A stretch of DNA of 64,000 bases. It comes from Acidobacteriota bacterium (GTDB lineage: Bacteria; Acidobacteriota; Terriglobia; Bryobacterales; Bryobacteraceae). The DNA is taken from assembly GCA_023436715.1 (NCBI GenBank), contig JAEZIJ010000204.1:3548-67547 (forward strand), read 5' to 3'. The notes below the pieces were generated by a model that did not search any database, had not been told where the DNA came from, and worked only from the letters and a program-made list of their open reading frames with translations. How positions within the stretch are numbered: position 1 is the stretch's first letter; every line of letters starts with the position of its first letter. Positions 6,660 to 54,636 of this stretch are shown here, in pieces. A program made the position numbers and the translations under genes.

Positions 6660-8453
6660 ATGAGCGCCAGGATGTCCATCAAGACGGTTGGCGTGCTTGC
6701 TGGCACACTGTACGGGATTTCTCTGTGTAACGGTGCCGCCGCTCCGGCGAAGGTATCTGGCAGCATAGCCGGGATGGTGAGCAACCCGTCGGGTATCCCC
6801 CAAATGGGGGCTACGGTATTTCTTTACAACCGCTTCGACCAGCTTCTGCAACGCTCCCTGACAACCGAGAAGGGCCTGTTTGGATTTGCGGCCCTCGCGC
6901 CGGGAGTCTATGCCATTCAGGTATCCCTGTCCAGCTACCTGCCCGCCCTGAAGCGCAACATCGTGGTGCAGCCGGGCATGCAGAGCCTGCTGAGCGTCAA
7001 CCTGGCGACCGTGTTCAGTTCCATCCAACTGGTCGCTGTTTCACCGGGTGACACGTCGCTGATGAGCGATGAATGGAAGTGGGTGCTGAGAAGTTCGAGT
7101 TCCACGCGGCCCGTCCTGCGGCTTCTGCCGGAACTCGGTCCGCCTCACGCGCCGCGCCGGGCTTCCACATCCGTGTTCTCCTCAACCAGGGGAATGGTGA
7201 AGGTCTCCGGTGGGGACCAGGGCTCGATACTGAGCAATGAACCAGACCTCGGCACCGCCTTCGCTCTGGCCACTTCTTTCCTTGGCGAAAACCAGCTTCG
7301 ATTCAGCGGAAATTTCGGGTACTCTTCAGGCTCGGGGCTCCCCACGGCCGCCTTTCGCACCAGCTTCCGGCGGGAGTTGGCCGGAGGCGAAGCTCCGGAA
7401 GTGAAAGTGACCATGCGCCAGTTGTACATGCCCGCGCGGGCGGGGACTGCGGTGCTCGGCGGCATGTCGGATTCGGCTCCGGTGCTGCGCACGTTGTCGG
7501 CCAGTCTGGCGGACCAGACGCGGCTTACGGACGATGTCCGGTTCGAATACGGGGCCACGTGGGATTCGGTGACCTTCCTCGACCGCTTGAACTACGTGAG
7601 CCCTTACGGGCGGCTGACGTATGATCGTGGCGACGGCGAGGTCTTGCAGATCAGCTACGCATCGGGGGCGCCGCCTCTGGATCTGCTCGCGCAGGAGCCT
7701 GGTAGCCGGATGGAGCTTCAGCAGGACCTCACGGGCCTTGCGGCATTCCCGAGAGTGAGTCTCCGCGGCGGTCGCGTGCAGGTTCAGCGCAACCAGAGTT
7801 GGGAAGTCGGCTACCGGCGCGGTTTTGAGTCTCTGACGTTCAGCGCCGCGCTGTTCAGCGAATCGGTCTCGAATGCCGCGGTCATGTCGACCGGATCACT
7901 CGGGTTCCAGGCTTCGCCGGATCTTCTGCCGGATGTATTCTCCGAAAGCTGGATCGTCAACGCCGGTCACTATCGCAGTTTGGGCTATGTGGTGTCCGTG
8001 ACGCAGAGACTTGCCGAGCACATTGACGCTTCGGTTGCGTTTGGCAGCGGCGGGGCGTTGGCCCCGGTCGGCGAACTCGAAGCCGGTAGTCCCGAGGAGT
8101 TGCGCGCAGCGATCCGCGAGAGGCGCCGCCATACGCTGACGATGCGGGTATCCGGACATCTCCCCCGCACCGGCACGCAGTTCGCAACGAGCTATCAGTG
8201 GGCGGACATGGCCTCTCTGACGCCGCAGCATGTGTACCTGACCCAGTCGATCGCACAGTCGGGTCTTGGCCTGAACGTGCAAGTGCATCAGCCTCTCCCC
8301 TATTTCGGCGGGCTCCCCGGACGGCTCGAAGCGACTGCCGACCTTCGGAACATACTCGAGCAGGGGTACGTGCCGCTCTACGCCGGCGTGCGCACCTCAT
8401 ACCTCATGCATACGCCCCGCAGCCTCCGGGGCGGCCTCAGCTTTATTTTCTGA
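6660..8453 (+). CDS. carboxypeptidase-regulatory-like domain protein with a C-terminal beta-barrel (outer-membrane type)
   Basis: N-terminal signal sequence. GSIAGMVSNPSGIPQMGATVFLYN..GLFGFAALAPGVYAIQV is CarboxypepD_reg-like. The protein ends in ..GGLSFIF, a typical OMP C-terminal aromatic. Confidence 0.7.
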   Translation: MSARMSIKTVGVLAGTLYGISLCNGAAAPAKVSGSIAGMVSNPSGIPQMGATVFLYNRFDQLLQRSLTTEKGLFGFAALAPGVYAIQVSLSSYLPALKRNIVVQPGMQSLLSVNLATVFSSIQLVAVSPGDTSLMSDEWKWVLRSSSSTRPVLRLLPELGPPHAPRRASTSVFSSTRGMVKVSGGDQGSILSNEPDLGTAFALATSFLGENQLRFSGNFGYSSGSGLPTAAFRTSFRRELAGGEAPEVKVTMRQLYMPARAGTAVLGGMSDSAPVLRTLSASLADQTRLTDDVRFEYGATWDSVTFLDRLNYVSPYGRLTYDRGDGEVLQISYASGAPPLDLLAQEPGSRMELQQDLTGLAAFPRVSLRGGRVQVQRNQSWEVGYRRGFESLTFSAALFSESVSNAAVMSTGSLGFQASPDLLPDVFSESWIVNAGHYRSLGYVVSVTQRLAEHIDASVAFGSGGALAPVGELEAGSPEELRAAIRERRRHTLTMRVSGHLPRTGTQFATSYQWADMASLTPQHVYLTQSIAQSGLGLNVQVHQPLPYFGGLPGRLEATADLRNILEQGYVPLYAGVRTSYLMHTPRSLRGGLSFIF

Positions 8454-8710
8454 GCCGGGCGCGCCGGACAAAGCCCGGCGGCAGCCCAGAAGGACTGACC
8501 CCACCTTGCGGGCAGGATCACGCCGAATCTTTCTTTTTTTCTTCTGCGATTTGATACACTTCGAGCCCGGATGCCGGGGCAAGCCGGGCTGCGTGCATTA
8601 AGGTGGGTTCGTGAATCGGTCCGGTCCTCTCAGTTCTTTCCCGCCAGCAGACCCTAACGGCCTACCCAATTCCCTTCATAGGAGTACCGATAACGCCGGA
8701 CCGATTCGCT

Positions 8711-8842
8711 TTACTTGCGGGCGCCCCGCTGCGGGCTTTTCACGCGGGACTGGCGCAGCTTCATGCGCCGCCGCTTCGGCTTGCTGATGATGAAAGTGCC
8801 GCTGCCCACATAAGTGGCCGTATAGAGTTTTTCGTCCGCCAA
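8711..8842 (-). CDS. small basic protein, 43 aa (unannotated frame)
   Basis: TTG start preceded by GGAGAA. Translation: (M)ADEKLYTATYVGSGTFIISKPKRRRMKLRQSRVKSPQRGARK. GC3 is very high in this frame and poor in the overlapping 149-aa track ORF 8676..9125. Confidence 0.45.
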   Translation of the reverse strand: MADEKLYTATYVGSGTFIISKPKRRRMKLRQSRVKSPQRGARK

Positions 8843-8865
8843 AGAATTCTCCTTCAAATCGTAAT

Positions 8866-10245
8866 TTGCCGATAGCTTTACTCGATTTTACCGCATGTGC
8901 ATTATCCTGTAGATTGAACTCTCGCAAGTCCCTCCCCGAACCCGGCGACACGCTGCGCGCCTCGGCGGTTTCCTCGGAGCTGACAGCGGAACCCGAAGCC
9001 CTTCCATCAATACCCGAACCCGAAATCGATCGCCCCGGCTGGTCCCAGGTTTTTCGCGCGCTGCGCCACCGTAACTTCAAGCTGTTCGTGGCCGGACAAA
9101 CCATCTCGCTGACGGGAACGTTCATGCAGACGGTGGCACAAAGTTGGCTGGTCTACCGCCTGACGCATTCGGAATTGCTGCTGGGCACCGCATGGTTCTG
9201 CACGCAGATTCCCGTCTTTATCCTTGGCCCCCTCGGCGGACTGGCGGCGGACCGGCACTCGCGGCATCGAATCGTCATCGCGACGCAAGTGTTTTCGATG
9301 ATCCAGGCGCTTCTGCTGGCCATCCTGACCCTCACGGGAACCGTGCAAGTGTGGCATATCCTCGCGCTGGCGGTCATGCTGGGCGTCGTCAATGCGTTCG
9401 ACATGCCGGGACGCCAGTCGCTTCTGATCCAGATGACCGGCAAGGACGACCTCCTTAGCGCCATCTCCCTGAACTCCACAATCTTTAACGCCGCGCGCGT
9501 TGTGGGCCCGGCCGCAGCCGGCCTGGCCGTTGCAGCGGTCGGCGAGGGCCTCTGCTTCCTTTTGAACGCGATCAGCTTCCTGGCGGTGATCGCTTCCCTG
9601 CTCGCGATGCGGCTGCCAAAGTTTGTCCCACAGAAGCGGGAATCGGCGTGGACGCATTTGGTTGGCGGTTTCCGCTACGCATACGGCCAGCCCATGATCC
9701 GCGCGCTGCTGATGATGGTGGCGGCCGCGACTATCTCGGGCATGCCCGCGCTTGTTCTGCTGCCGTTTTTTGCGGACGGCATCTTTCATCGCGGCTCGCA
9801 GGGGCTCGGATTTCTGAGCGGCGCAATGGGGATCGGAGCGGTGATCGGCACGCTGGTTCTGGCGCGCCGGGCGCGAACGTCGGGCCTGATCAAGGTCGTT
9901 TTCCTGGGCGCTATGACTTTTGGCGCGAGCTACCTCGTCTTGGCGGGCTCTCCCTCGTTCTACCTTGCGCTGGCCATTATGCCGGTGATCGGCTTCAGCG
10001 TCATGCGGCACAACGCGTCGGCAAACACGCTCATACAGGTACTCATCCCGGATGAGTATCGCGGCCGTATCATGGCGCTATACTCGATGACCGTGGTGGG
10101 AATCGGGCCGTTCGGCAGCCTCGCCGCGGGGGCACTGGCGGGCCGCTACGGAGCGCGGGTAACTGTGATGTGCGGGGGCGTCCTCTGCCTCATCGCCGCG
10201 ACCCTTTTCCGCTTGAACGTACGTAAACTGCCGGAGTTGAAATAG
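8866..10245 (+). CDS. MFS transporter (EntS/MFS_3-like)
   Basis: About 12 hydrophobic spans. FRALRHRNFKLFVAGQTISLTGTFMQTVAQSWLVYRLT is a typical N-terminus for this family. The true start may lie downstream of 8866. Confidence 0.8.
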   Translation: MPIALLDFTACALSCRLNSRKSLPEPGDTLRASAVSSELTAEPEALPSIPEPEIDRPGWSQVFRALRHRNFKLFVAGQTISLTGTFMQTVAQSWLVYRLTHSELLLGTAWFCTQIPVFILGPLGGLAADRHSRHRIVIATQVFSMIQALLLAILTLTGTVQVWHILALAVMLGVVNAFDMPGRQSLLIQMTGKDDLLSAISLNSTIFNAARVVGPAAAGLAVAAVGEGLCFLLNAISFLAVIASLLAMRLPKFVPQKRESAWTHLVGGFRYAYGQPMIRALLMMVAAATISGMPALVLLPFFADGIFHRGSQGLGFLSGAMGIGAVIGTLVLARRARTSGLIKVVFLGAMTFGASYLVLAGSPSFYLALAIMPVIGFSVMRHNASANTLIQVLIPDEYRGRIMALYSMTVVGIGPFGSLAAGALAGRYGARVTVMCGGVLCLIAATLFRLNVRKLPELK

Positions 10246-12152: not shown

Positions 12153-12229
12153 GCGCCCGTAGCTCAGCTGGATAGAGCGCTTGCCTCCGGAGCAAGAGGT
12201 CGGCCGTTCGAATCGGCCCGGGCGTACCA
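12153..12229 (+). tRNA. tRNA-Arg (anticodon CCG), CCA encoded
   Basis: Hand-folded cloverleaf. Acceptor GCGCCCG/CGGGCGT; D arm GCTC-AGCTGGATA-GAGC; anticodon arm CTTGC-CTCCGGA-GCAAG; T arm GGCCG-TTCGAAT-CGGCC; then A-CCA. Confidence 0.9.
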
Positions 12230-43938: not shown

Positions 43939-44310
43939 ATGCCCACGATAACGACGCGGCGCTTGGATGAGAACGGAGACCCCATGCGTGGGTCCGGGCT
44001 GGCGAACTTCGTCTCGGACATCGACGCCGTGGCAATCATTATCAGCACCCGCCTGCGGCTTCTCCAATCCGAGTGGTTCGAGAGTCGCAACGAAGGCACG
44101 CCACTGTTCCAGTCACTCCTTGGGCACCCAATTACCAGCCAGGGAGTCGCACTCATCCTCAGGCAGCGGATCCTCGGCTCGCCGTACGTCACTGGCATCC
44201 AATCGCTGAACGTGAGCTACCAGCGGGCGGCCAGGAGTTTTGTTTTTGCCGCGGTCGTGAACACCCAGTTCGGGCAGGTCGCTGTCTCAAACGCGCAGCA
44301 GCAGAGCTAA
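43939..44310 (+). CDS. baseplate wedge small protein (XkdS/gp25-position)
   Basis: 123 aa, between the spike and baseplate J genes. Confidence 0.45.
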   Translation: MPTITTRRLDENGDPMRGSGLANFVSDIDAVAIIISTRLRLLQSEWFESRNEGTPLFQSLLGHPITSQGVALILRQRILGSPYVTGIQSLNVSYQRAARSFVFAAVVNTQFGQVAVSNAQQQS

Positions 44311-44316
44311 AACACC

Positions 44317-45684
44317 ATGAGCTACAATCCACCCTCCATCGGGTCTTCTGGACTCATCATCCCGACTTATAACGACATCCTGGAGTGGCTGATCGGACAG
44401 TACCGAGGCATCTACGGGAACTCGGTTTATCTCGGGCCAGATTCCTCCGACTACCAGGACATCGCCGTGCGCGCGCTCCAGGCGAACGATTTCGCGCAGG
44501 CGCTCCAGGCTGTTTACTTGTCGTTCAACCCGCAGACCGCGCTCGGAGCGAGCCTTGATCTGCAAGGGAAGCTGATCGGCACTCCACGCAAGGCAGCGTC
44601 CCAGTCGTTCGCTGTCGTGACTCTCACGGGAACTCCCGGAACCACGATCATCAACGGCGCAGTGCGCGATGTGAACGGAAACTACTGGAATCTGGCCTCG
44701 CCGTCGATCATCGGCACGGCCGGCACGGTTTCGGTAATCGCCACCGCGCAGAAGTACGGCAACATCACGGCCAACCCGGGCGACATCTCTTCCATTACCA
44801 CGCCCACGGCGGGCTGGACCTCGGTCACCAACCCCGCGGCGGCCACGCCCGGAGAGGCGGTCGAGCCCGATTCGGTATTTCGTGCGCGCCTGATGGTAGC
44901 CCAGGTCAAGCCGTCCGTTTCGCTGGTAGCTGGCACGGCGGCGGCGGTCGCGGCCGTGGCCGGAGTCACGCGCTCGCGGGTCTATGAAAACCCGACCAGC
45001 AGCGTGGACTCTTACGGCAACCCACCGCACTCAATCACCTGTGTGGTCGAGGGCGGATCGGCCGAAGAGATCGCCTGGGCGATCTACGAGAACCGCGGCA
45101 TTGGCTGCCACACCAACGGCACGACGACAGTAAATTTGCAGGACCCTAACAACGGCTCAATCAACATCCCGATCGCTTTCGAAGTGCTCAGGCACGTCCC
45201 GGTCCATGTCGCCGTCGGCGTGCACGCGCTCTCTGGCTTCACGACGGCGACCCGCGCCTCCATAGCAGCCGCCATAGCCGAATACCTGAACAGCCTGGGC
45301 ATCGGCGAAAGCGTCGTGTTCTCCGAACTCTACGGTGCCGCGCTGACGGCGCGCCCCGATCCTGACCAGCCGCTATTCTCGATCCGCTCGATGGCATCCG
45401 GGAAGCAGGCTGCCTCGACGACCGGCAGCACTACTGCCGGAAGCCCCACGGTTACGGTTACAAGCGCTGCCGGCATCGCCGCTGGGCAGGGGATCACCGG
45501 ACCGGGCGTACCCGACAACACCACCGTGTCGGGCATCTCGGGCACGACTGTAACGCTTTCGGCGAACGCAACCGCTACCGCCTCCGGCGTCGCGCTGGCC
45601 TTCTTTGTGACTGGAACGTCGGATATTGCAGTCGCATTCAATGAGGCGGCGCAGTCCGGAGGCGTGGTGGTGAACCTGGTCTAG
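44317..45684 (+). CDS. baseplate J-like protein
   Basis: EPDSVFRARLM..GTAAAVAAVAGVTRSRVYEN..ITCVVEGG pattern. Confidence 0.6.
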   Translation: MSYNPPSIGSSGLIIPTYNDILEWLIGQYRGIYGNSVYLGPDSSDYQDIAVRALQANDFAQALQAVYLSFNPQTALGASLDLQGKLIGTPRKAASQSFAVVTLTGTPGTTIINGAVRDVNGNYWNLASPSIIGTAGTVSVIATAQKYGNITANPGDISSITTPTAGWTSVTNPAAATPGEAVEPDSVFRARLMVAQVKPSVSLVAGTAAAVAAVAGVTRSRVYENPTSSVDSYGNPPHSITCVVEGGSAEEIAWAIYENRGIGCHTNGTTTVNLQDPNNGSINIPIAFEVLRHVPVHVAVGVHALSGFTTATRASIAAAIAEYLNSLGIGESVVFSELYGAALTARPDPDQPLFSIRSMASGKQAASTTGSTTAGSPTVTVTSAAGIAAGQGITGPGVPDNTTVSGISGTTVTLSANATATASGVALAFFVTGTSDIAVAFNEAAQSGGVVVNLV

Positions 45685-45697
45685 AAGGATTCCAACA

Positions 45698-47068
45698 ATG
45701 AAACGACTCGCAATTCTCGCTCTCCTGTTCTCTGCCTGTGTGCTTGCGCAGAACCCGGCCACCGCGGTCTTCCCCGGCGCCGTGGCCACAGATACGACGC
45801 TCGGGGTGCTCTGCAACAGCGCCCACACGAAGCTGACCGCCAGCGTGGGCGCATCCGACCTCACCTTCCAGGTGGCCGATGGCTCCAAGCTCTGCGCCCC
45901 CGGATGGGTGACAATCGACTCCAACACGCCAGCGGCCGAGGTGGTGAAGGTCTGCTCTAAATCGGACAATACCGTAGGCGTGTGCGCGGGCGGCCGGGCG
46001 GCGCACGGTTCGGCGGTCCCGCACGGCTACGGCGCGCTCGTCGATGGCTTCATAGACTCGAACTACCACAACCAGACGGCGGCGGAAGTGAAGGCGGTCC
46101 AGGCTGCGCTCGGGACAAATCTCGCCAACGTCGTCAAGCGGGACGCGAACGGAAACGCGACGCTGGCCAACGTGATTCTCGGGCCGAAGACCATCGGGGG
46201 CGGAGTCAATCAGTTGCCGGCGGCTTTGGCTGGCAATGCCGGCTGGATCACAGTCGTAACCGACGCCGCGAGCAACTCGGATTGCACGGTTGGCGGAGGA
46301 TCGTATGCGTCCCTCTGTCGTTCAAACGGAGCCACTTGGCAGCCCATTGGGGGCGGAGGCGGATCTGGTCTCGGGTTTACGCCGCTCAACCCGGCCAACA
46401 ATCTATCCGACGTGCAGAATCGCACGACGGCTTTGAGCAATCTCGGTGGAGTGCCAAATACGGACGTGCGCCTGAGCGATGCGCGCATGCCGCTGGCGCA
46501 CACGCATACAGGCTCCGATGTCACCACGGCGGTGGCCACCGCGACGGCGCTGGCGGCGAACGGGTTAAACTGCCCGGCCGGACAGGTGGCTGCGGGCGTG
46601 GACTCTTCCGGCAATGCTGAAGGCTGCACCACAACTATAAACGGAACTGCGATTCCTGCGAGTAAGACGCTGATGGCGACGGACGCCGCAGTGTCCGACA
46701 TCCAGATCCCCGCCAAGTACAAGAGGCGAACCTGCGAGATTCACATCTGGGGCAGCGGCGCAAGCCAGGTGCTCCAAGATACGGACGATGAACCGGCGAG
46801 CTGCTTCAATGATTCCGGCGTGCAGGAGACCATCACGGCGGTTCGTTGCTGGGCTAACTCTGGCAGCCCGACGGTGACTCCGATTATCACCGGAGGGGCG
46901 ACGAACTCAATCCTGACTGGCGCGCTCACATGTGGCACCGCGGTGTGGCAGTCCGGCGCGCTGAATGGAACACCCACGCTGGATAACGGTGGAACCATCG
47001 ACGCCAACACCAGTGCTGCTGGAGGCGTGGCGACGAACATTCGGCTGGTTATCACGCTGACGAGGTAG
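45698..47068 (+). CDS. tail-fibre-like protein with an N-terminal Sec-type signal sequence
   Basis: MKRLAILALLFSACVLAQ followed by FPGAVATDTTL..; NLSDVQNRTTALSNLGG fibre-type motif. Confidence 0.55.
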   Translation: MKRLAILALLFSACVLAQNPATAVFPGAVATDTTLGVLCNSAHTKLTASVGASDLTFQVADGSKLCAPGWVTIDSNTPAAEVVKVCSKSDNTVGVCAGGRAAHGSAVPHGYGALVDGFIDSNYHNQTAAEVKAVQAALGTNLANVVKRDANGNATLANVILGPKTIGGGVNQLPAALAGNAGWITVVTDAASNSDCTVGGGSYASLCRSNGATWQPIGGGGGSGLGFTPLNPANNLSDVQNRTTALSNLGGVPNTDVRLSDARMPLAHTHTGSDVTTAVATATALAANGLNCPAGQVAAGVDSSGNAEGCTTTINGTAIPASKTLMATDAAVSDIQIPAKYKRRTCEIHIWGSGASQVLQDTDDEPASCFNDSGVQETITAVRCWANSGSPTVTPIITGGATNSILTGALTCGTAVWQSGALNGTPTLDNGGTIDANTSAAGGVATNIRLVITLTR

Positions 47069-47071
47069 ACC

Positions 47072-49453
47072 ATGCGCATATTTCTAACAGCACTTTTCGC
47101 GGCGGCTCTCGCCGGGCAGGTGATCGTGGTTCGGCACCGGGTGGCACCGTCTCCTTCCGAAGCCTGGCTGGAGGGATATGGCTACCGCAAGGAGTTGACC
47201 ATTCCGGCCGGCGCAGTGAGCGCGGACCTGAGCAACTTCCCCGTTTATGTGCCTCTATCGGGCGACACGGACCTGTCAGCGCATGCGCTGGCAGACGGAT
47301 CGGATATAGCGTTCACGGCGGCCGATGGTGTCACGGTGCTTCCCTTTGAGATCGTGAACGGCAACCCTGGCACGGCGGCGGCGAGCGGCGCCTGGAACTG
47401 GATCACTGGGCCTTCGGCGTTGCGGGTACTGGGGGCTAAAGACCAAACCTGGTTTGGTTACGTGTCGCAGCAGGGGTATGTTTATGCTGCCAGTTACGAC
47501 AACGCGAACAAAACGACGGCTTCGTTCGACCTGTTCCAGATGCAGTTCCAGCAGGACGATCACAACCAGCCAGCGTTTCTGGAGTTGAGGAGCGGAACTG
47601 GGGGGACGACTAAGCACATCGCGGCGTTCTACCAGCAGCACAACGGTCAGGCCCTCTACCGCGTGACCGCAACCCCAGAGGATCTCATGTCTCTCGGAGC
47701 GCAGCAGGATTGGACTTCGATCCATCTCTCCGGAGATACGGGCCACGCATATGCCGCCCCGTTCCAAATGGCAGACGGTTCCATCTGGGTTTTCTTCCGT
47801 TCCTCGCTCGGACAGAAGTGGGCGGCGGCAAAGTGCAACTCGGAAGCGAACCTTCGCTCGAACACTTGGAACGCCGCAGTCGAGGTGGCAAACGCCGGAA
47901 GTGGCTACACGTACAACTACGTGAAAGCCACCCAGAGCGCAGACCGTCAATGGATCTACCTTGCGATGGTCACGACGCATCCGGACACGTCGCGCCAGAA
48001 TTCCCTGTATGCAGCAAAGTTCGACGGCGCGAACCTCTACGACCTCTCTGGAACCCTGATCGGCCCGATGGGTGGAGCGCAGGACCTTGCATCGTGGACG
48101 CGAGTGTGGACCTACACCGATGGAATGGCAGCTTATGGCCAGGACGCCTCGTGTTGGATCTGGGATATTGCCCTGAACAGCAGCGGAAACCCAGTCGTCG
48201 CATACACCGTGTTCCCGGGCGCTACCGAGACTTCCGACCCGGACCATCGCTATCGATTAGCGGTGTGGAACGGATCAGGCTGGATCGACAACGAGATTTC
48301 TCCGGGCGGAACACACCCGAACACGGTCGGCCCGGGATTCTATTCCGGAGGTATAGCCCTGGATCAGGCTGACCCAAATGTGGTGTACCTGAGCCGCAAC
48401 AACGGTCTGCCGAACTACGTTCTGGAGAAGAAGGTCACGGCGAACAGCGGAGCAACGTGGACCACCACGACGATCAGTGCCGACGGCAACAACTATCGCC
48501 CGCTCGTGGCCTGGGGCCCTGCGGGAAACGTCCTCCGCCTGTTCTGGCTGCGCGGAACCTACACGAGCTATACGAACTACGCGATGAGCGTGCAGGCGTA
48601 CCCCTCACCGGCTCGGTTGAGTTGGCTGACGGAGGCGCATGCACGGCTACCGCACGTGAGTGCAGCGGCGCCCACGCAATTCTACCTGTACTACGGCAAT
48701 GCGAGCCCTACGGCGCAGCAGGACAAGGCTACACTGTGGTCCGGATATTCGGTAGTCGAGCATTTCACGGAGACGGACCTGGGCTTGTATGCGAAGGACT
48801 CCACGGAGACTTCGTGGATGGATCGACGCGGGGTGAAAGGCCGGCCGTCGCAACTGGAAGGCGCGGGGCAGGTCGGACGGGCTCTGGTTTACGCGAACAG
48901 CAGCTTCTTGCAGTTCCCAGCAGCGACTCTGAATATCGCTGGCGATACGGCAATGACACAGATGGGCTGGATCAAGACGGCCTCGGCGAACGGGAGCGGA
49001 ATGATCGCGTCGAATTGGCCGGGCAGCGGAACGCAGTCGAGGTTCTACTCGCGCATCCATGCGACCAGCAAGCTGCTGGAATGTTGGGTTACCCTGAGCG
49101 ACGGAACTACTTTCGGTGGATCGTTCGCGAACCCTGCGGGAGTGAATATCGCAGACGGGAACTGGCACTTATACGCCTGCCAGTACACCAATGCCGGAGG
49201 AGTCGGAATGACGGCGCTTATTGACGCACAGGCGAGCCTGACGACGTATCCTGGCTCGCTCGCCTTCCACGTGTCGGCAAGCCAACCGCTGTATCTCGGA
49301 TTCTCAGCGCACAGCGGCGCGAGTTGGAGCGGGATGCTGGACGAGTGGCGCTACGCGCGATCCATCCTGTCGCCAGCTTACTTGCGGGCGACGTACGACA
49401 ACCATGCTTCGGCAGGCACGTTCCTGTCTAAGGGCTCGCAGGAGATTCGTTGA
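47072..49453 (+). CDS. DUF2341 / BNR(Asp-box) / LamG-like multidomain protein with a signal sequence
   Basis: MRIFLTALFAAALAG; WLEGYGYRKELTIPAGAVSADLSNFPVYVPL (DUF2341); SGATWTT Asp-box; C-terminal GNWHLYACQY..GMLDEWRYARSILSPAYLRATYDN (LamG-type). Confidence 0.65.
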   Translation: MRIFLTALFAAALAGQVIVVRHRVAPSPSEAWLEGYGYRKELTIPAGAVSADLSNFPVYVPLSGDTDLSAHALADGSDIAFTAADGVTVLPFEIVNGNPGTAAASGAWNWITGPSALRVLGAKDQTWFGYVSQQGYVYAASYDNANKTTASFDLFQMQFQQDDHNQPAFLELRSGTGGTTKHIAAFYQQHNGQALYRVTATPEDLMSLGAQQDWTSIHLSGDTGHAYAAPFQMADGSIWVFFRSSLGQKWAAAKCNSEANLRSNTWNAAVEVANAGSGYTYNYVKATQSADRQWIYLAMVTTHPDTSRQNSLYAAKFDGANLYDLSGTLIGPMGGAQDLASWTRVWTYTDGMAAYGQDASCWIWDIALNSSGNPVVAYTVFPGATETSDPDHRYRLAVWNGSGWIDNEISPGGTHPNTVGPGFYSGGIALDQADPNVVYLSRNNGLPNYVLEKKVTANSGATWTTTTISADGNNYRPLVAWGPAGNVLRLFWLRGTYTSYTNYAMSVQAYPSPARLSWLTEAHARLPHVSAAAPTQFYLYYGNASPTAQQDKATLWSGYSVVEHFTETDLGLYAKDSTETSWMDRRGVKGRPSQLEGAGQVGRALVYANSSFLQFPAATLNIAGDTAMTQMGWIKTASANGSGMIASNWPGSGTQSRFYSRIHATSKLLECWVTLSDGTTFGGSFANPAGVNIADGNWHLYACQYTNAGGVGMTALIDAQASLTTYPGSLAFHVSASQPLYLGFSAHSGASWSGMLDEWRYARSILSPAYLRATYDNHASAGTFLSKGSQEIR

Positions 49454-50382
49454 TATATAAGCCCTTGTATTACGGCGGGAACTAACACGGGCAGAATCGC
49501 CATCCAGTAGCGTATTTCCCACCAGTAGCCGATCACGGAGAGAACGCAGACGTAGGGAATTGCTGCGAGCGCCATTCCTCGGACTACCGGAGCACTGCGG
49601 AGGACACCGCGCGCAGCCAGCATTAGCAGCGGGCCGGCCATCAGAAAGTTCAGAATCAGGGCCAGGCGCAGGTCTTGTAGGTTTCCGGCGATCGCGGTCT
49701 GGATGGAGAACGTAGCCGGACGGTATCCAACGACGGCGTGAACCGCAGCGAGCGTTGCGGCCCACGCGAAAATGCTTCCGAGCGCGACTCGCACTTCTCT
49801 TCTTCTGAGTTCGGCGGACCTCCAGTGTCTCGGGTTCAGCGGAAGGACTGCCAGCAAGAAGCCGAGCGGCAGTAATGCAGTCGTTTCGCGAATCATCGCA
49901 GCGGCGATGCTGAGGGGTACGAGGCGGGACCAGTGCTTTCTGCTTATCCAGAGCATCGCAAGGGCGCAGAGGCTGGCCTCCCAGAATGACCACGGGTGAA
50001 AGGAGTGGTGGCGAAAGGTAAAGTCGATAATCACCGCCGAGAGCGCCAAGCCGAAATATGCAAGTCCGGGACCGAACCACTGGTGTAGCAATCCCAGAAG
50101 CGATCCGAAGAAGATGGCCAGAGCGGCGAAATTAAGAACCATGTAAGTGAGCCGAAAGGATCTCTCCGGAGGCAATATCTGTCCGGCCACTTTCATGATT
50201 CCCTCGGCAACGTAAGGGACGAGCACTCGGTAACGCAGTTGGTAGGGCGCGGTCCCGTCCACCACGGAGCGGTGGAAACTCACGCGAATGTCGTGCCGCG
50301 GGACCTCGATGCGGTCGTAATAGTCGTAAGTCAGCAAGGCCGACAGATAGAACACCAACAACAACACAGAGGTTCTATGCAC
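49378..50382 (-). CDS. polytopic inner-membrane protein (no family recognised), reverse-oriented within the tail module
   Basis: Track ORF of 334 aa with about 9 hydrophobic spans. AT-richer than its neighbours. Its 3' end overlaps the convergent 793-aa gene by 76 nt. Confidence 0.65.
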   Translation of the reverse strand: MHRTSVLLLVFYLSALLTYDYYDRIEVPRHDIRVSFHRSVVDGTAPYQLRYRVLVPYVAEGIMKVAGQILPPERSFRLTYMVLNFAALAIFFGSLLGLLHQWFGPGLAYFGLALSAVIIDFTFRHHSFHPWSFWEASLCALAMLWISRKHWSRLVPLSIAAAMIRETTALLPLGFLLAVLPLNPRHWRSAELRRREVRVALGSIFAWAATLAAVHAVVGYRPATFSIQTAIAGNLQDLRLALILNFLMAGPLLMLAARGVLRSAPVVRGMALAAIPYVCVLSVIGYWWEIRYWMAILPVLVPAVIQGLIYQRISCEPLDRNVPAEAWLSYVARK

Positions 50383-50414
50383 ATGCCAGAGTCTATCAAA
50401 AGCGAGATCAGGGT

Positions 50415-51053
50415 ATGAATCTGCCCGCAGCCGGTGAAGCGGCGGCCGGAGAAGTCTACGCCGGAACCCCGCCGGGGGAATCCGCAGGCGAAACCACCTT
50501 CGCCTACTACCGCGGCCTCGTCACCTCCGAGTACCAGACCGCCGCGAAGATGCTGGCCTGGCTCACCGCCAGCATCACGCCGTTTCAAGACGGCCTGATC
50601 TGCCTCATGACGTTCGCCCCGGCCTTCGACATCAACCAGGCGGTCGGTCCGCAACTGGACGTGCTCGGAAACATCATCGGCCAGCGGCGCACGGTGGACT
50701 TCCAGCCGTCGAACGGCGTGAGCCCAATCCTGGACGATGACGGCTACCGCTTCCTGCTCAAGGCCCGCATCATGCAAAACCACTGGGATGGGCGAATTGG
50801 AACCCTGCTCGCCATGTGGCGGCGGATCTTCCCCGGCGGCACGCTGCTGGTCACCGACCACCAGGACATGACCGTGACGCTGGTGATCTCCGGCGCCTTC
50901 ACCTCGATCATGCAGGACCTGATCTCGCACGGCTATATCGTGCCACGGCCCCAGGGAGTGCTCTACAACTACAGTTTCCCGACACTGCCGATCCTGGGTC
51001 TGGACCGCAGTGACGACTACGTCGCCGGGCTTGACCTCGGACATTTTGTGTAA
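50415..51053 (+). CDS. DUF2612-like baseplate/tail protein
   Basis: YYRGLVTSEYQTAAKMLAWL..; LDVLGNIIGQRR; DDDGYRFLLKARI. Confidence 0.55.
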   Translation: MNLPAAGEAAAGEVYAGTPPGESAGETTFAYYRGLVTSEYQTAAKMLAWLTASITPFQDGLICLMTFAPAFDINQAVGPQLDVLGNIIGQRRTVDFQPSNGVSPILDDDGYRFLLKARIMQNHWDGRIGTLLAMWRRIFPGGTLLVTDHQDMTVTLVISGAFTSIMQDLISHGYIVPRPQGVLYNYSFPTLPILGLDRSDDYVAGLDLGHFV

Positions 51054-51061
51054 GGAGCAAT

Positions 51062-51946
51062 ATGCCGGCTACCAGCAATTTCAAAACCTTCAACCCCGAT
51101 CTCCAGAACTCCGAGACGGACTCGCAGTACGCCTCCGACGTCATGCGCACGGGCGGCGCCGTGCTCGACGCACTGCTGCCCTCGCCGCTCTTTAACAAGT
51201 TCGCGCACCAGGTCTCCATGTTCCCGGCGGCCTTCTGCCAGATGCTGGCGAACAAGGGATTCTCGACCTCGGACGCGGATTTCAACAACCTTGTGTCGGT
51301 GCTGTCGAACGTCAAGACGGGGGCGGATTTCACATCGCCCATCGTGGTGGTTCCGTATGCAACGGCGGTCACCTTCGACGCCTCGGTAGCGGCCGAGTTC
51401 GATCTCACCCTTTCGGGCAACGTTTCTGCCTCCTCTCTGGTCAAGGTCTCCATCGGCCAGATGCTGACGTTCATCATCACCCAGGACGCCATAGGCGGGC
51501 GCACGCTCTCCTGGCCGGCGAACATGACCTATCCGGGGCCGATCTGCGCGCTGCCGAACAGCACCAGCATTCAGATGTTCGTCGTGCGTCCGAACGGCAT
51601 GATCGCGCCCGTCACGCCCATGATCCAGATCTCGGGAGGACTCATTGTCCCGCCGCTGCCCTCAGTGGTGAGCGTGAGCGCGAGCGGAGACATCTCGAGC
51701 GCCAACAAGGAGGTGTTCGAAAAGGTCAACGCCTCGGCCGGAGCGGTGTCGCGGAACATCTTCACGGCGGCCGGCTTCTCGGGCTTCAAGGTCCACGTCA
51801 AGAAAACCGACACGAGCGCCAATGCGGTGACCGTGCAGCCGAAGGTTGCCGGGCAGACCATCGACGGCTTCCCGAGCGTGTCGATCGCCAAGTACAACGA
51901 TTCCCTGTCCATGATGTCGGACGGGGCGAACTGGTTCATCTTCTGA
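51062..51946 (+). CDS. tail fibre protein
   Basis: N-terminus (FNPDLQNSETDSQYASDVMRTGGAVLDALLPSPLFNKFAHQVS) is typical of fibre/collar proteins. Confidence 0.55.
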   Translation: MPATSNFKTFNPDLQNSETDSQYASDVMRTGGAVLDALLPSPLFNKFAHQVSMFPAAFCQMLANKGFSTSDADFNNLVSVLSNVKTGADFTSPIVVVPYATAVTFDASVAAEFDLTLSGNVSASSLVKVSIGQMLTFIITQDAIGGRTLSWPANMTYPGPICALPNSTSIQMFVVRPNGMIAPVTPMIQISGGLIVPPLPSVVSVSASGDISSANKEVFEKVNASAGAVSRNIFTAAGFSGFKVHVKKTDTSANAVTVQPKVAGQTIDGFPSVSIAKYNDSLSMMSDGANWFIF

Positions 51947-51955
51947 GGTATCCAC

Positions 51956-52636
51956 ATGGCATACATCCAGGGCAGGATTCAGAAACAGCAGACCTTCACT
52001 TCGAGCGGCACGTTCGCACCGTCGGCCGCGCTGTTGCAAGCGGGCGGATGGGTCGAGGTGCTGCTCGTTGCGGGCGGAGGCGGAGGTGGAGCGGGTAGCA
52101 GTGGAAGCAATGCCAGGTCCGGCGGCGGTGGAGGAGGAGGCCAAGTCGTCAGGCGCATGGTTCAAGTCTCCGGGGCGCTCACTGTGACTATTGGGGCTGG
52201 CGGCGCCCCAGGCGGAAACGGAGGCAGTTCGTACTTCGGGCCTCTCTTGGCGGCAAACGGTGGGTACGGGACTTCCGGGGCGTTCGGCGGAAACTGCGGA
52301 GACGGCAGCGGAGGGACAGGGGCGTCCGACCTTTACGGACTTGTCGGAGGTGGCGGCGGGGCTGGCGGCGCGGGCGGAGGGATCAGTGGCTCTGCGGGTG
52401 GCGGGATAGGCGGGCCTGGGCTCTACGGGTATGGCGGTGGCGGTGGATCTGGAGGGGCCCATGGCGGCAGTTGCGGAGGCGGCAAGGGTGGATTTGCCAA
52501 TCCCGGCACAGGCGTGGGCGGCAATGCGGTACCGAACAGCGGGAGCGGAGGCGGGGGTGGCGCTACCGGAGCGGAAGCCGGATACAGCGGCGGCTCCGGC
52601 GGCTCGGGCATAGCGATTGTGACCTGGTGGGAGTGA
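51956..52636 (+). CDS. glycine-rich domain protein (fibre-associated)
   Basis: VLLVAGGGGGG.. with long GGxGG tracts, ending in GIAIVTWWE. Confidence 0.6.
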   Translation: MAYIQGRIQKQQTFTSSGTFAPSAALLQAGGWVEVLLVAGGGGGGAGSSGSNARSGGGGGGGQVVRRMVQVSGALTVTIGAGGAPGGNGGSSYFGPLLAANGGYGTSGAFGGNCGDGSGGTGASDLYGLVGGGGGAGGAGGGISGSAGGGIGGPGLYGYGGGGGSGGAHGGSCGGGKGGFANPGTGVGGNAVPNSGSGGGGGATGAEAGYSGGSGGSGIAIVTWWE

Positions 52637-52639
52637 TCC

Positions 52640-52828
52640 ATGCCGATTCCAACGAACATCTACGCCCTGATCGAAAACCGCACGGTGGTCAACATCATCG
52701 TGGCCGACCCGAACTTCGTCCTCCTGCACTTCCCGCAGGCGGTCCGCATCGACAACCTTATGCCGGTGCCGTGCATCGGCTGGAGCTACATAGGCGGGGC
52801 ATTCAAGGCCCCGGGAGAAAATCAGTGA
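52640..52828 (+). CDS. small phage hypothetical protein
   Basis: Track ORF of 62 aa. Confidence 0.45.
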   Translation: MPIPTNIYALIENRTVVNIIVADPNFVLLHFPQAVRIDNLMPVPCIGWSYIGGAFKAPGENQ

Positions 52829-53325
52829 AACATCTACTCGCAGTTCTGATTCTGCTCGCGCTCGCGGTACCGTCCGTGGCGCAAACCGCAACCGACCAGC
52901 CGGCCTACTTCATCGGTGCGAACGTAGGCTTCTCGCGGGCCGCCTCCGTAAATCCCACGCTCGGTATCGGCTTCGGCATGCGCGCGGCCAACACCGACGG
53001 CACTTGGGCGACACTGGAGTTCGCAAACGCCACCGCCGTAACCTCCACCATACAGGTTGGCCTGCGTCAGGTGCTCGCCAAGCGGGGCGGCTGGAGCCTG
53101 ATCGCGCTCGGCTCAGCCGGTGGCGCCGTCACCCAATCGGACGACTCCGGACAGGGCAGCGCCATCACGGCCATGTTCGGCGGCGGCGGCGGACTCGCCT
53201 ATGACCTGACAAGGATCTGGTCCAAGCTCGACACGCTGAGCCTGGAGGCCCAAGTTAAGGCGGTCAAGATCAACGGAACCGATGTCCAGCTCGGCTTCGC
53301 CGGGTGGATCACGAAGAGTTTCTGA
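52825..53325 (+). CDS. small outer-membrane beta-barrel protein (Lom/Ail/OmpX-size)
   Basis: GTG at 52825. Signal peptide VKHLLAVLILLALAVPSVAQ. Alternating-polarity strands. C-terminus ..GFAGWITKSF ends in Phe. 166 aa. Confidence 0.6.
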   Translation: MKHLLAVLILLALAVPSVAQTATDQPAYFIGANVGFSRAASVNPTLGIGFGMRAANTDGTWATLEFANATAVTSTIQVGLRQVLAKRGGWSLIALGSAGGAVTQSDDSGQGSAITAMFGGGGGLAYDLTRIWSKLDTLSLEAQVKAVKINGTDVQLGFAGWITKSF

Positions 53326-53327
53326 CC

Positions 53328-53993
53328 ATGAAGCCCGCTTCCATCGCCCTCCGTATCGCGGCTGCGCTCTGCCTGCTCGCCTTGGGCGTGGCCGCGTTTT
53401 GGTCCGCTCACAGCCTCGCCGCAGCGCGGGCGGACCTCCGCGCCACCGGGGACGCGCTGGCGGGTTCCGTAGCCGCGGCGCGCGCGGATCTGGCCGCCAC
53501 CCAAGCCGCGCTCGTCCACGAGGTCCAGGCCGCACGTGAATCCGCCGATGCGCGGCTGGCAGAAGCGCTCAGGGAGGTTCGCTCCGCTCGGGTGAACCTG
53601 AGAGACCAGCTTGCCTCGGCGAACGCCACGGCGGCCGGTCTCCGCGCGGACGTGCGTCCAATTCTCGAGAATGCCACCGTTGCGGTCTTGCCCTACGGTT
53701 CCCTCGGGGCCGAAGCGACGCGATTGGCGCGCAACGCGAACGACTCCTGGGATGACCTGTATCTCGACGTTTCGGCTGCGGTCCAGTCCGCAACGGTCGC
53801 CAGCCGCGGCGTTGCTGAGGCATCCGAGGCCGTCGGCAAGGCGGCGCCAGCCGTGGCTCAGGCGGCCGAACTAAATGTTCCCGTGATGCTCGACGACAGC
53901 AGGCAGATCGTCAAGAACGTGAGACGCGGGACGAGCCTGCCGATGGTGATTCTCAAGTTCGCGTGGGACAAGACGCTGGGGAGGTTATTCTGA
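53328..53993 (+). CDS. N-terminally membrane-anchored Ala-rich coiled-coil protein (i-spanin-like topology)
   Basis: MKPASIALRIAAALCLLALGVAAFW is followed by about 190 aa of helical ARADL/AAL repeats. The start lies 3 nt after the OMP gene's stop. Confidence 0.55.
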   Translation: MKPASIALRIAAALCLLALGVAAFWSAHSLAAARADLRATGDALAGSVAAARADLAATQAALVHEVQAARESADARLAEALREVRSARVNLRDQLASANATAAGLRADVRPILENATVAVLPYGSLGAEATRLARNANDSWDDLYLDVSAAVQSATVASRGVAEASEAVGKAAPAVAQAAELNVPVMLDDSRQIVKNVRRGTSLPMVILKFAWDKTLGRLF

Positions 53994-54199
53994 TGTCCAC
54001 TGAAGAAGTTCAGACAGCATTGCTGAGAATCATCCTGGTGTGCCTCGCCGGGATGCTGCTCATGGGGCTCCTGTCTTTCTGGATGACTCCATCTTACGTG
54101 GCTGGCGCGCAGGTGACCTTCGACACCTTCAAGGAAATCTTGTTGGTCAGCCTGGGCGTGAAGGGAGGCATGGCGGTTCCGGGAGCGGCTAAGCCGTGA
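53993..54199 (+). CDS. putative holin
   Basis: 68 aa with one or two TM helices (LLRIILVCLAGMLLMGLLSFW). TGATG coupling upstream; overlaps the endolysin start. Confidence 0.45.
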   Translation: MSTEEVQTALLRIILVCLAGMLLMGLLSFWMTPSYVAGAQVTFDTFKEILLVSLGVKGGMAVPGAAKP

Positions 54200-54636
54200 A
54201 ACTCAAAGCGCAGTCACAACCGCCCGCGCAGCGCGAGAGGATGACCGAGCATTTCGCGCGGGAAGAGTTCGCGTGTCCATGCTGCGGTCAGGCGCCGATC
54301 GCCCAAACCCTCGCCTCGGCCCTGGAGGGTCTACGCGGCATCGTCGGAGTAGCTATCCGGATCAATTCCGGATACCGCTGCGAGGCGCACAACAAGGCCA
54401 TCGGCGGAGAGCCGCACAGCAAGCATTGCCAGGGCATCGCGGCCGACATCTCGGCCGAGTGCGGGTGGCGCAAACTCTACGAGGCAGCCCTCCGCATTCC
54501 CGCCATCTCCGACGGCGGGATTGGGTTGTACCCCGATTCGGGCCTCGGCTTCATCCATGTCGATGTGCGACCGCAGAAGGCCCGCTGGGCGCGAATCAAG
54601 GGCAGGTACGTCGGGATCGAGCAGGCGCTCGTGTGA
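54196..54636 (+). CDS. endolysin, peptidase M15 (D-Ala-D-Ala carboxypeptidase/VanY-like) family
   Basis: FACPCCG; INSGYRCEAHNKAIGG..SKHCQGIAADI; FIHVDVRP (H..D..H zinc ligands). Confidence 0.8.
   Translation: MKLKAQSQPPAQRERMTEHFAREEFACPCCGQAPIAQTLASALEGLRGIVGVAIRINSGYRCEAHNKAIGGEPHSKHCQGIAADISAECGWRKLYEAALRIPAISDGGIGLYPDSGLGFIHVDVRPQKARWARIKGRYVGIEQALV

Follow-up and report, generated by a model that had tools for sequence, protein, structure and literature searches.

The window analysed here, a 64,000-nucleotide (nt) stretch of an Acidobacteriota contig (JAEZIJ010000204.1), carries a prophage in whose tail module 4.7 kb of DNA separate the baseplate J-like wedge gene (J) from the gene of the DUF2612 baseplate protein (hereafter DUF2612). 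This block holds three genes: A, encoding a mosaic fibre-like protein; B, encoding a chimeric protein of the export type that is probably a polysaccharide lyase; and C, lying on the opposite strand and encoding a polytopic membrane protein. Our results show that the block was truly inserted, at a junction whose content varies among relatives, and that it is composite rather than one unit. As to its role, we propose, at about even chances, that it is accessory cargo comprising an exported binder (A), an exported lyase (B) and a separately expressed glycan modifier (C), all aimed at host surface polysaccharide. The recurrence of signal peptides on fibre-like phage proteins is the most surprising part of these results.

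The proposed scenario is as follows. Three parts of different origin would have accumulated at a recombination-prone wedge-gene junction of an E217/phiTE-type myovirus prophage lying beside a tRNA-Arg gene. First, A and B, whose genes closely follow J, would be produced from the late transcript in translational coupling to J. Second, both proteins would be exported by the Sec system and undergo disulfide folding outside the cytoplasm. Third, they would attach to and cleave the polysaccharide surrounding the infected cell (for B, the predicted target is a uronic-acid-containing exopolysaccharide or capsule), thereby helping the release of the progeny and destroying receptors. Fourth, C, transcribed separately from the minus strand and plausibly during lysogeny, would modify that glycan while it is attached to its lipid carrier on the periplasmic side, leading to lysogenic conversion or exclusion.

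An insertion at a variable baseplate junction

From the following lines of evidence, we conclude that the block was inserted. First, the DUF2612 gene directly follows the J-like gene in the cultured Burkholderia phage Magia and Edwardsiella phage vB_EpM_ZHS (ZHS), as well as in L009, L010, L013 and L014, four of the 10 related viral contigs in which we compared the junction (J proteins 39-76% identical); the adjacency assumed in a preliminary description of this DNA, made from the letters alone, is thereby borne out. Second, the other junctions hold a 318-amino-acid (aa) protein with a signal-peptide-like start (L008), a signal-peptide protein of 238 or 228 aa (L011 and L015, respectively), a 136-aa protein together with a 391-aa Gly-rich protein (L006 and L007), or 660 bp of AT-rich DNA with small reverse open reading frames (ORFs; L012), so that the three genes are not a uniform possession of the relatives. 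These varied contents make the J-DUF2612 junction an insertion hot spot, at which signal-peptide proteins recur as cargo and of which our window shows the largest version. Such proteins are also encoded elsewhere in these contigs, namely between the sheath-initiator and J genes in two of them (L011, L013), and behind the fibre genes in L007.

The composition of the insert differs modestly from that of its surroundings: the GC content at third codon positions (GC3) is 0.755 for A, 0.729 for B and 0.696 for C, against 0.78-0.89 for the flanking phage and host genes. Gene C is indeed richer in AT, as had been remarked, the difference being a modest one (58.1% GC). At the insert borders we found no flanking direct or inverted repeats marking a mobile element, and Rfam gave no match in the region 44000-54500. 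An 18-nt similarity (83%) relates positions 45658-45675 to 47021-47038, i.e. the 3' ends of J and A (at the protein level, GGVVVNLV followed by the stop in J, and GGVATNIRLV in A), and may be a recombination scar or a chance match.

That the insert is a single cassette, as formerly suggested, is not supported. The A family recurs in related phages, at this junction as well as at others, and pattern scans of IMG/VR, which detect only close relatives of B and only pattern-matching relatives of C, returned none for either protein. Furthermore, homologues of the tail proteins of the window are absent from the 37 other C-family loci that we inspected.

Gene A starts 13 nt past the stop codon of J and is preceded by an AAGGA ribosome-binding site, while B starts 3 nt past the stop codon of A, behind a GAGG ribosome-binding site. 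Given this close spacing and these sites, A and B should be made together with the late genes. If DUF2612 and the downstream genes share the late promoter, about 960 nt antisense to C have to be crossed. The question of how late transcription passes an antisense gene had been raised earlier; reverse-oriented genes within tail modules have precedents, namely gp21 in the baseplate module of Magia, and L012. Another annotated precedent for such a layout is found in Magia (L024, positions 7892-9856), where a membrane acyltransferase gene and a reverse SGNH esterase gene come right after the tail-fibre gene.

Fibre-like protein A and its predicted signal peptide

Signal peptides were recognised by a rule requiring a positive n-region, a hydrophobic h-region of 10-15 residues and small residues at positions -3 and -1. 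Of the 35 ORFs in the prophage that reach 150 aa, A and B alone have an N-terminus resembling a signal peptide by this rule (in B, MR, then IFLTALFAAAL, then ALA↓G, the arrow indicating the predicted cleavage), and no such N-termini were found in the control stretches of Magia and ZHS.

A single-sequence search with A gave no match in Pfam, PHROG, NCBIfam or PDB sequences, nor did a tblastn search of 50,697 GenBank phage records. A large protein collection yielded 53 relatives, which share three modules of A separately (residues 1-145, 122-220 and 340-456, the last with up to 80% identity), a mosaic pattern typical of fibre proteins. The relatives that we looked up sit in phage structural regions (L003, L004, L022, L023 and L058). 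At least 42 of the 53 begin with a signal peptide of the n/h/c type; hence a signal peptide, which had been called unexpected on virion proteins, is the rule in the family of A and not peculiar to the present locus. The junction LA↓QNPATA.FPGAVATD is common to A, P0033, P0034, P0038 and P0041. P0074, a signal-less, beta-helix tailspike-like protein from the P22-like module of L023, has an N-terminus homologous to the N-domain of A, and begins exactly at the predicted mature N-terminus of A, with no upstream extension. Two other apparently signal-less relatives were discarded: the gene call of P0029 is probably truncated, an upstream GTG in L058 restoring the signal peptide, and P0028, which starts at the matching internal methionine, is likely truncated in a similar way. 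The possibility that A is a lipoprotein was rejected as well, Cys14 not being conserved among the relatives.

The cysteines bear on the same question. A has 13 of them, of which 12 belong to the mature part, and the median cysteine content is 1.86% in signal-bearing proteins versus 0.68% in virion proteins devoid of a signal (Mann-Whitney p=6e-7). Most telling is the N-domain of A, whose cysteines 39, 66, 86 and 96 are largely kept in the signal-bearing homologues (in P0037 two of the N-domain cysteines are lost as a pair, and in P0038 one is shifted), and all four are absent from the signal-less P0074 and P0078. This loss of the N-domain cysteines in proteins devoid of a signal fits a real export and oxidative folding of A, as predicted from its sequence. 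Together, these data suggest that A is a trimeric-fibre-like protein of a phage-borne mosaic family, in which a signal peptide is the rule, and that it is predicted to be exported.

Runs of two to six consecutive signal-peptide genes occur in L003 (10001-18323), L004 (6350-18937), L022 (464-8000) and L058 (7755-10155), four phage contigs differing in GC content and tail type. The cysteine-rich products of these runs include beta-helix, Pel9A-like and Phage_depo_C proteins.

The first alternative to our proposal is that A and B are receptor-binding or depolymerase proteins of the virion, which would either fold oxidatively in the periplasm and join particles still lacking fibres only once lysis has mixed the compartments, or carry an N-terminal helix that is not used for export. 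We consider this possible, on the unlikely side. The mosaicism of A and its H-x-H motif (LAHTH) are of the fibre type, its N-domain is shared with the tailspike-like P0074, and both A and B are co-oriented with, and translationally coupled to, baseplate genes; yet the signal-peptide proteins found at the homologous baseplate junctions share no N-terminal attachment domain, and all relatives have a conserved signal-less set, consisting of p294 and a Gly-rich protein, that might represent the core fibre. In the compact contigs L003, L004, L022 and L058, most or all of the fibre-like or beta-helix candidates bear a signal and lie inside structural modules, a position that favours this alternative. 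However, the particles of tailed phages assemble in the cytoplasm, and to our knowledge there is no precedent for Sec-exported tail fibres in these phages. We found no literature describing signal peptides on their tail fibres, and these are not mentioned in a paper on isolated acidobacterial viruses either. Finally, the scan of viral contigs, limited to close relatives, gave none for B, which also speaks against a virion role for this protein.

Returning to exported cargo, we regard the sequence evidence that the fibre-like phage proteins of this group would be made for export as clear. In a wider form, which we put forward tentatively and judge unlikely, a certain group of soil phages, probably the phages of Acidobacteriota, would generally export their receptor-binding or depolymerase-type proteins through Sec. 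Arrays of fibre, beta-helix and lyase proteins, stabilised by disulfides in the periplasm, would either be added to the particles only at lysis, or serve as free agents clearing or masking surface polysaccharide. If so, tailed phages would have a second, extracytoplasmic arm of host recognition, which would be paired here with a new GT-C-like family of glycan-modifying proteins.

Candidate lyase B and membrane protein C

The central part of B matches the Pfam family BNR_4 (PF15892; E=3.8e-17, 63 bits, cut-off 27.3). A separate scan of the C-terminal part brings LamG_3 above its cut-off, and DUF2341, which stays below the Pfam threshold, was confirmed by BLAST to a DUF2341-annotated protein. 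A single-sequence search with B gave no match in PHROGs, NCBIfam or PDB sequences. The first DUF2341 half of B is 52-54% identical to residues 2-64 of P0024 and 719-780 of P0020, a protein annotated with DUF2341 and LamG_3. The C-terminal part of B aligns with residues 789-1040 of P0020, directly after its own N-terminal DUF2341 half. As the two halves are contiguous in P0020, the propeller of B is an insertion within DUF2341. P0023 and P0024, both 52% identical to the first DUF2341 half of B at their very start, are Sipho_tail-domain proteins that start at the equivalent of residue 31 of B and lack a signal peptide. DUF2341-LamG proteins had been described as normally secreted cellular proteins, but DUF2341 is not a purely secreted-cellular module, since it also begins these signal-less tail-domain proteins.

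Several lines of evidence converge on a lyase. First, a Foldseek search with the AlphaFold2 (AF2) model of B returned as the top match the PL25 ulvan lyase 5UAS (E=8e-18, TM score (target) 0.66), followed by GH145, PL42 and PL24 enzymes. Second, a sequence profile built from B and five propeller homologues matched 5UAM (E=1.1e-8). Third, H164, Y227 and R243, which are invariant in the B family, align with His123, Tyr188 and Arg204 of 5UAM, the catalytic residues of PL25 (PMC13193363), and the H-to-N substitution of the 5UAS mutant maps to the same profile column as the candidate catalytic histidine of the B family. Fourth, the BNR_4 family includes characterised PL42 and PL25 lyases, and the proteins homologous to the propeller of B are cellular, bear signal peptides or lipoprotein signals, and are encoded next to glycosyltransferases or an amylase. 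From the BNR_4 match, the PL25 fold, the triad, the signal peptide and these exported cellular homologues, we propose that B is probably an exported lyase acting on a uronic-acid-containing polysaccharide and assembled from cellular and phage-type parts.

Like the PL25 enzyme PLSV_3936 (5UAM/5UAS) and the BNR_4 group at large (PL24, PL42 and GH145), B is predicted to have a seven-bladed propeller with a BNR_4 profile and the His/Tyr/Arg set. It differs from PLSV_3936 in its low identity (about 15%), and in the location of its propeller, within a DUF2341-LamG_3 scaffold encoded in a phage tail module; moreover, ulvan is an unlikely substrate in soil bacteria. Virion-borne depolymerases, such as beta-helix tailspikes and the endosialidase propeller of phage K1F, resemble B in associating, among tail genes, a glycan-degrading domain with a lectin-like module. 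Unlike them, B has a predicted Sec signal peptide, a propeller of the PL25 type instead of a beta-helix, and no attachment domain that we could recognise.

Protein C, previously described as having about nine transmembrane segments, shows 9-10 hydrophobic helices, and its AF2 model has a predicted local distance difference test (pLDDT) score of 86. About 10 transmembrane segments, with the N-terminus inside, are predicted when the hydropathy profile, the positive-inside rule and the helices of the model are combined. C has no match in Pfam, PHROGs or NCBIfam, and its family, which lacks a Pfam model, gave no profile match to PDB sequences. There are 12 close homologues (28-49% identity, E down to 5e-85), and the family profile collects 1,667 cluster representatives, including 217 with E values below 1e-30; the concern that the minus-strand frame might lack conserved homologues is thus removed. 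We accordingly rejected a spurious antisense ORF, these homologues being strong and no plus-strand ORF of more than 75 aa being present in the stretch antisense to C. The closest genome matches are Acidobacteriota and Gemmatimonadota metagenome-assembled genomes. As the C family was met elsewhere neither beside homologues of the tail proteins of the window nor, by pattern scan, in IMG/VR, we consider C as a host-derived gene captured by the phage.

In the public annotation C is 325 aa long, with its start placed at V10, which would truncate the first transmembrane helix (window 50355-50382); the upstream GTG at 50382 restores this helix in full, as in the homologues. Neither start is preceded by a clear ribosome-binding site. 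The tail of C that overlaps B is not conserved in the C family, and similar convergent 3' overlaps occur in the cellular loci L001 (10963-11925, minus strand), L033, L041 and L046. The convergent neighbour in L001 encodes a heparinase II/III-type lyase; it was rejected as a homologue of B, BLAST showing no similarity.

The conserved motifs of C are D20/Y21/E26, APYQxRYR, R124..P130-S132-E135, R165-E166-T167, G219-Y220-P222 and W287-E289-R291, and the model would place them on the outer, periplasmic, face of the membrane. D20 and E26 are conserved at 90% or more in 13 close members but not across 89 wider members, whereas E135, E166 and E289 are conserved across the latter. Consistent fold matches in the PDB came only from the GT-C enzymes STT3 and EmbB, and a BFVD search returned weak matches to uncharacterised proteins only. 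Sub-threshold PMT_2/GT87 matches were obtained with 3 of the 89 relatives and with the longer, fused P0091, and one relative is fused to a methyltransferase. The genes adjoining C-family members encode methyltransferases, GT2 and GT4 glycosyltransferases, heparinase II/III, MBOAT and PMT_2 proteins, GDSL esterases and a flippase, along with unrelated proteins. Based on its sequence relatives, their gene neighbours and its model, the role of C is most likely related to glycans. GT-C folds, among those suggested earlier for comparison with the predicted structure, gave the best PDB matches, which are weak ones. The polytopic helical core of C finds these matches among GT-C enzymes (STT3/PglB and EmbB; PMT_2 and GT87), and C has conserved polar motifs on the predicted outer face and relatives in glycan loci, with weak PMT_2 and GT87 matches. 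Unlike these enzymes, it has only 334 aa, no soluble outer domain, no Pfam match and no first-loop Asp conserved across its family, its Foldseek E values being above 0.1.

A second alternative, which we hold distinctly unlikely, is that the whole block is a surface-conversion unit expressed in the lysogen, B and C operating as in cellular exopolysaccharide loci and A being an exported adhesin. The C homologue of L001 lies between genes of heparinase II/III-type lyases, of which one converges on it and overlaps its 3' end, but none of the C-family loci has a BNR_4 neighbour. The propeller of B has its homologues among exported proteins of cells, whereas A is phage-borne. The GC3 value is lowered in all three genes; nevertheless A and B have neither a promoter nor a spacing of their own, and their coupling to J predicts late expression. 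The earlier choice between a surface-modification unit and an unusual receptor-binding/depolymerase set therefore has a basis on both sides, B being export-type and predicted to be glycan-active, and C being GT-C-like with glycan neighbours; what does not stand is that the genes form one unit. A third alternative, namely that C was captured by chance and has a role unrelated to glycans (DNA exclusion, transport or lipid modification), could invoke its lack of a family assignment, its weak fold matches and its many non-glycan neighbourhoods (amidohydrolase, protease and FAA hydrolase), but is very unlikely given that GT-C enzymes are its only consistent structural matches, that the sub-threshold matches are all to PMT_2 or GT87, that glycan-synthesis neighbours recur and that the conserved motifs lie on the predicted periplasmic face.

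The following observations weigh against our proposal of an exported binder and lyase with a separate glycan modifier. The signal peptides were called by a home-made rule, not by SignalP. The cysteines of the C-terminal domain of A are conserved in nearly all of the 35 aligned relatives, whatever their N-terminal module; they do not follow the presence of a signal, so cysteine content alone is no proof of export. The fibre-type features of A, together with its homology to P0074, would suit a virion component just as well. The AF2 model of B is of moderate confidence only, with a pLDDT of 70-90 in the propeller and below 50 elsewhere, and in the PL25 zinc site (His208, His264, Cys266 and His278) the column of His208 is not a histidine in the B family. 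As for C, its GT-C matches are weak (E 0.1-1, TM score about 0.5), the acidic residue of the first outer loop is not conserved across the 89 wider members, and in many C-family loci glycan genes are lacking from the neighbourhood. Its own transcription finds no sign in the DNA either: a consensus scan, covering only sigma-70-type promoters and intrinsic terminators, found no promoter-like or terminator-like sites at the insert borders or around C, the short gap between C and DUF2612 being likewise devoid of a sigma-70-like promoter and of a terminator.

The insert can be compared with two classes of accessory phage genes. The morons of phage lambda comprise lom, an outer-membrane protein gene located between tail genes, and bor, a reverse-oriented lipoprotein gene. 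As with these morons, genes for predicted exported or envelope proteins lie here between conserved late genes, are absent in relatives and differ in composition, and C resembles bor in being antisense to the late operon. The differences are that no own promoter or terminator was detected, that A and B are large, fibre- or enzyme-like and coupled to a baseplate gene, and that the insert splits two wedge genes. Seroconversion modules lie near tail fibre or tailspike genes, as do gtrABC in P22, the O-polymerase genes after the tailspike gene of epsilon15, and oac in Sf6. In these modules, as in the acyltransferase/SGNH esterase pair of Magia, a polytopic glycan-modifying enzyme is encoded near a glycan-recognising or -cleaving protein, which is also the arrangement predicted here, and their logic is that an altered receptor excludes superinfection. 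Unlike them, C shows no homology that we could detect to GtrA/B/C, Oac or Wzy (no such family match in Pfam, PHROG or NCBIfam), and its part in conversion is conjectural.

Accessory genes that alter or cut host surface sugars are already known near tail fibre genes. To these, our locus adds (i) a phage-encoded PL25-type propeller, a predicted lyase, set in a lectin scaffold; (ii) a large unnamed family of membrane proteins, GT-C-like in fold and comprising about 1,700 cluster representatives, for which capture by a phage offers a handle on function; and (iii) a group of fibre-like proteins having export signals as the norm, in which cysteine pairs are lost in signal-less relatives. If the exported proteins are either virion parts or secreted receptor-destroying agents, host recognition and release by soil phages would have to be pictured differently, and the prediction of receptor-binding proteins from metagenomes would be affected as well.

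Layout of the tail module and neighbouring genes

The coordinates of the insert and its borders are given in Table 1. The gene positions, the length of the insert, the overlap of B and C and the gap in front of DUF2612 indicated in the preliminary description all agree with the ORF map.

Table 1. Coordinates (window numbering) of the insert, its parts and the bordering baseplate genes.
Feature	Position	Strand	Evidence
J, baseplate J-like wedge gene, upstream border of the insert	44317-45684	+	Pfam Baseplate_J E=2.2e-14; PHROG 6 baseplate wedge E=1.7e-44
Gene A, mosaic fibre-like protein, 456 aa, start MKRLAILALLFSACVLAQ	45698-47068	+	ORF map, shared modules
A, predicted signal peptide, residues 1-17	45698-45748	+	n-region MKR, h-region LAILALLFSAC, predicted cleavage VLA↓QNP
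Gene B, chimeric export-type protein, probable polysaccharide lyase, 793 aa, start MRIFLTALFAAALAG	47072-49453	+	
B, predicted signal peptide, about residues 1-15 (MR, then IFLTALFAAALAG)	47072-47116	+	AF2 helix at residues 2-14
B, N-terminal half of DUF2341, residues 31-93	47162-47350	+	BLAST to P0024 and P0020
B, BNR_4/PL25-like seven-bladed beta-propeller, about residues 94-520	47351-48631	+	Pfam, Foldseek, profile
B, C-terminal half of DUF2341 and LamG_3 lectin-like domain, residues 526-791	48647-49444	+	LamG_3 E=1.7e-9; P0020 alignment
Gene C, 334 aa, about 10 transmembrane segments, GT-C-like fold, GTG start	49378-50382	-	
Convergent 3' overlap of B and C, 76 nt	49378-49453		
Gap of 32 bp separating the divergently oriented starts of C and DUF2612	50383-50414		
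DUF2612/Phage_Wedge1 baseplate gene, downstream border of the insert	50415-51053	+	Pfam PF11041 E=7e-30

PF11041, the Pfam family of DUF2612, carries the name Phage_Wedge1 in the newer release. The tail module is of the contractile, E217/phiTE type, and its genes follow the order sheath, tube, tape measure (with an SLT domain), Dit-like protein, hub, spike, sheath initiator and J. Portal and DnaB genes are located upstream of it. On the 3' side of the insert come wedge 1, a 294-aa structural protein, a Gly-rich fibre-like protein and then the lysis genes, among which an M15 endolysin gene at 54196-54636. The tRNA-Arg gene (12153-12229) lies at the likely border of the prophage; a repeat of its end that would define the att sites was not found within the window. 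Nor does the window contain paralogues of A or B elsewhere.

Downstream of the fibre gene, the region 53328-54199 encodes a 221-aa protein, which has an N-terminal membrane helix and a long Ala/Arg-rich region of coiled-coil appearance, then a 78-aa hydrophobic protein, the M15 endolysin gene being next. The two proteins are likely spanin-like and holin-like lysis proteins, respectively. Such lysis genes imply a diderm host, which is probably Acidobacteriota-like.

Between the fibre and lysis genes, i.e. at the position of lom in lambda, the plus-strand region 52825-53325 encodes a 166-aa protein that has a canonical signal peptide (MKHLLAVLILLALAVPSVAQ) and no Pfam match. This protein terminates in GWITKSF, a C-terminal Phe being typical of outer-membrane beta-barrels.

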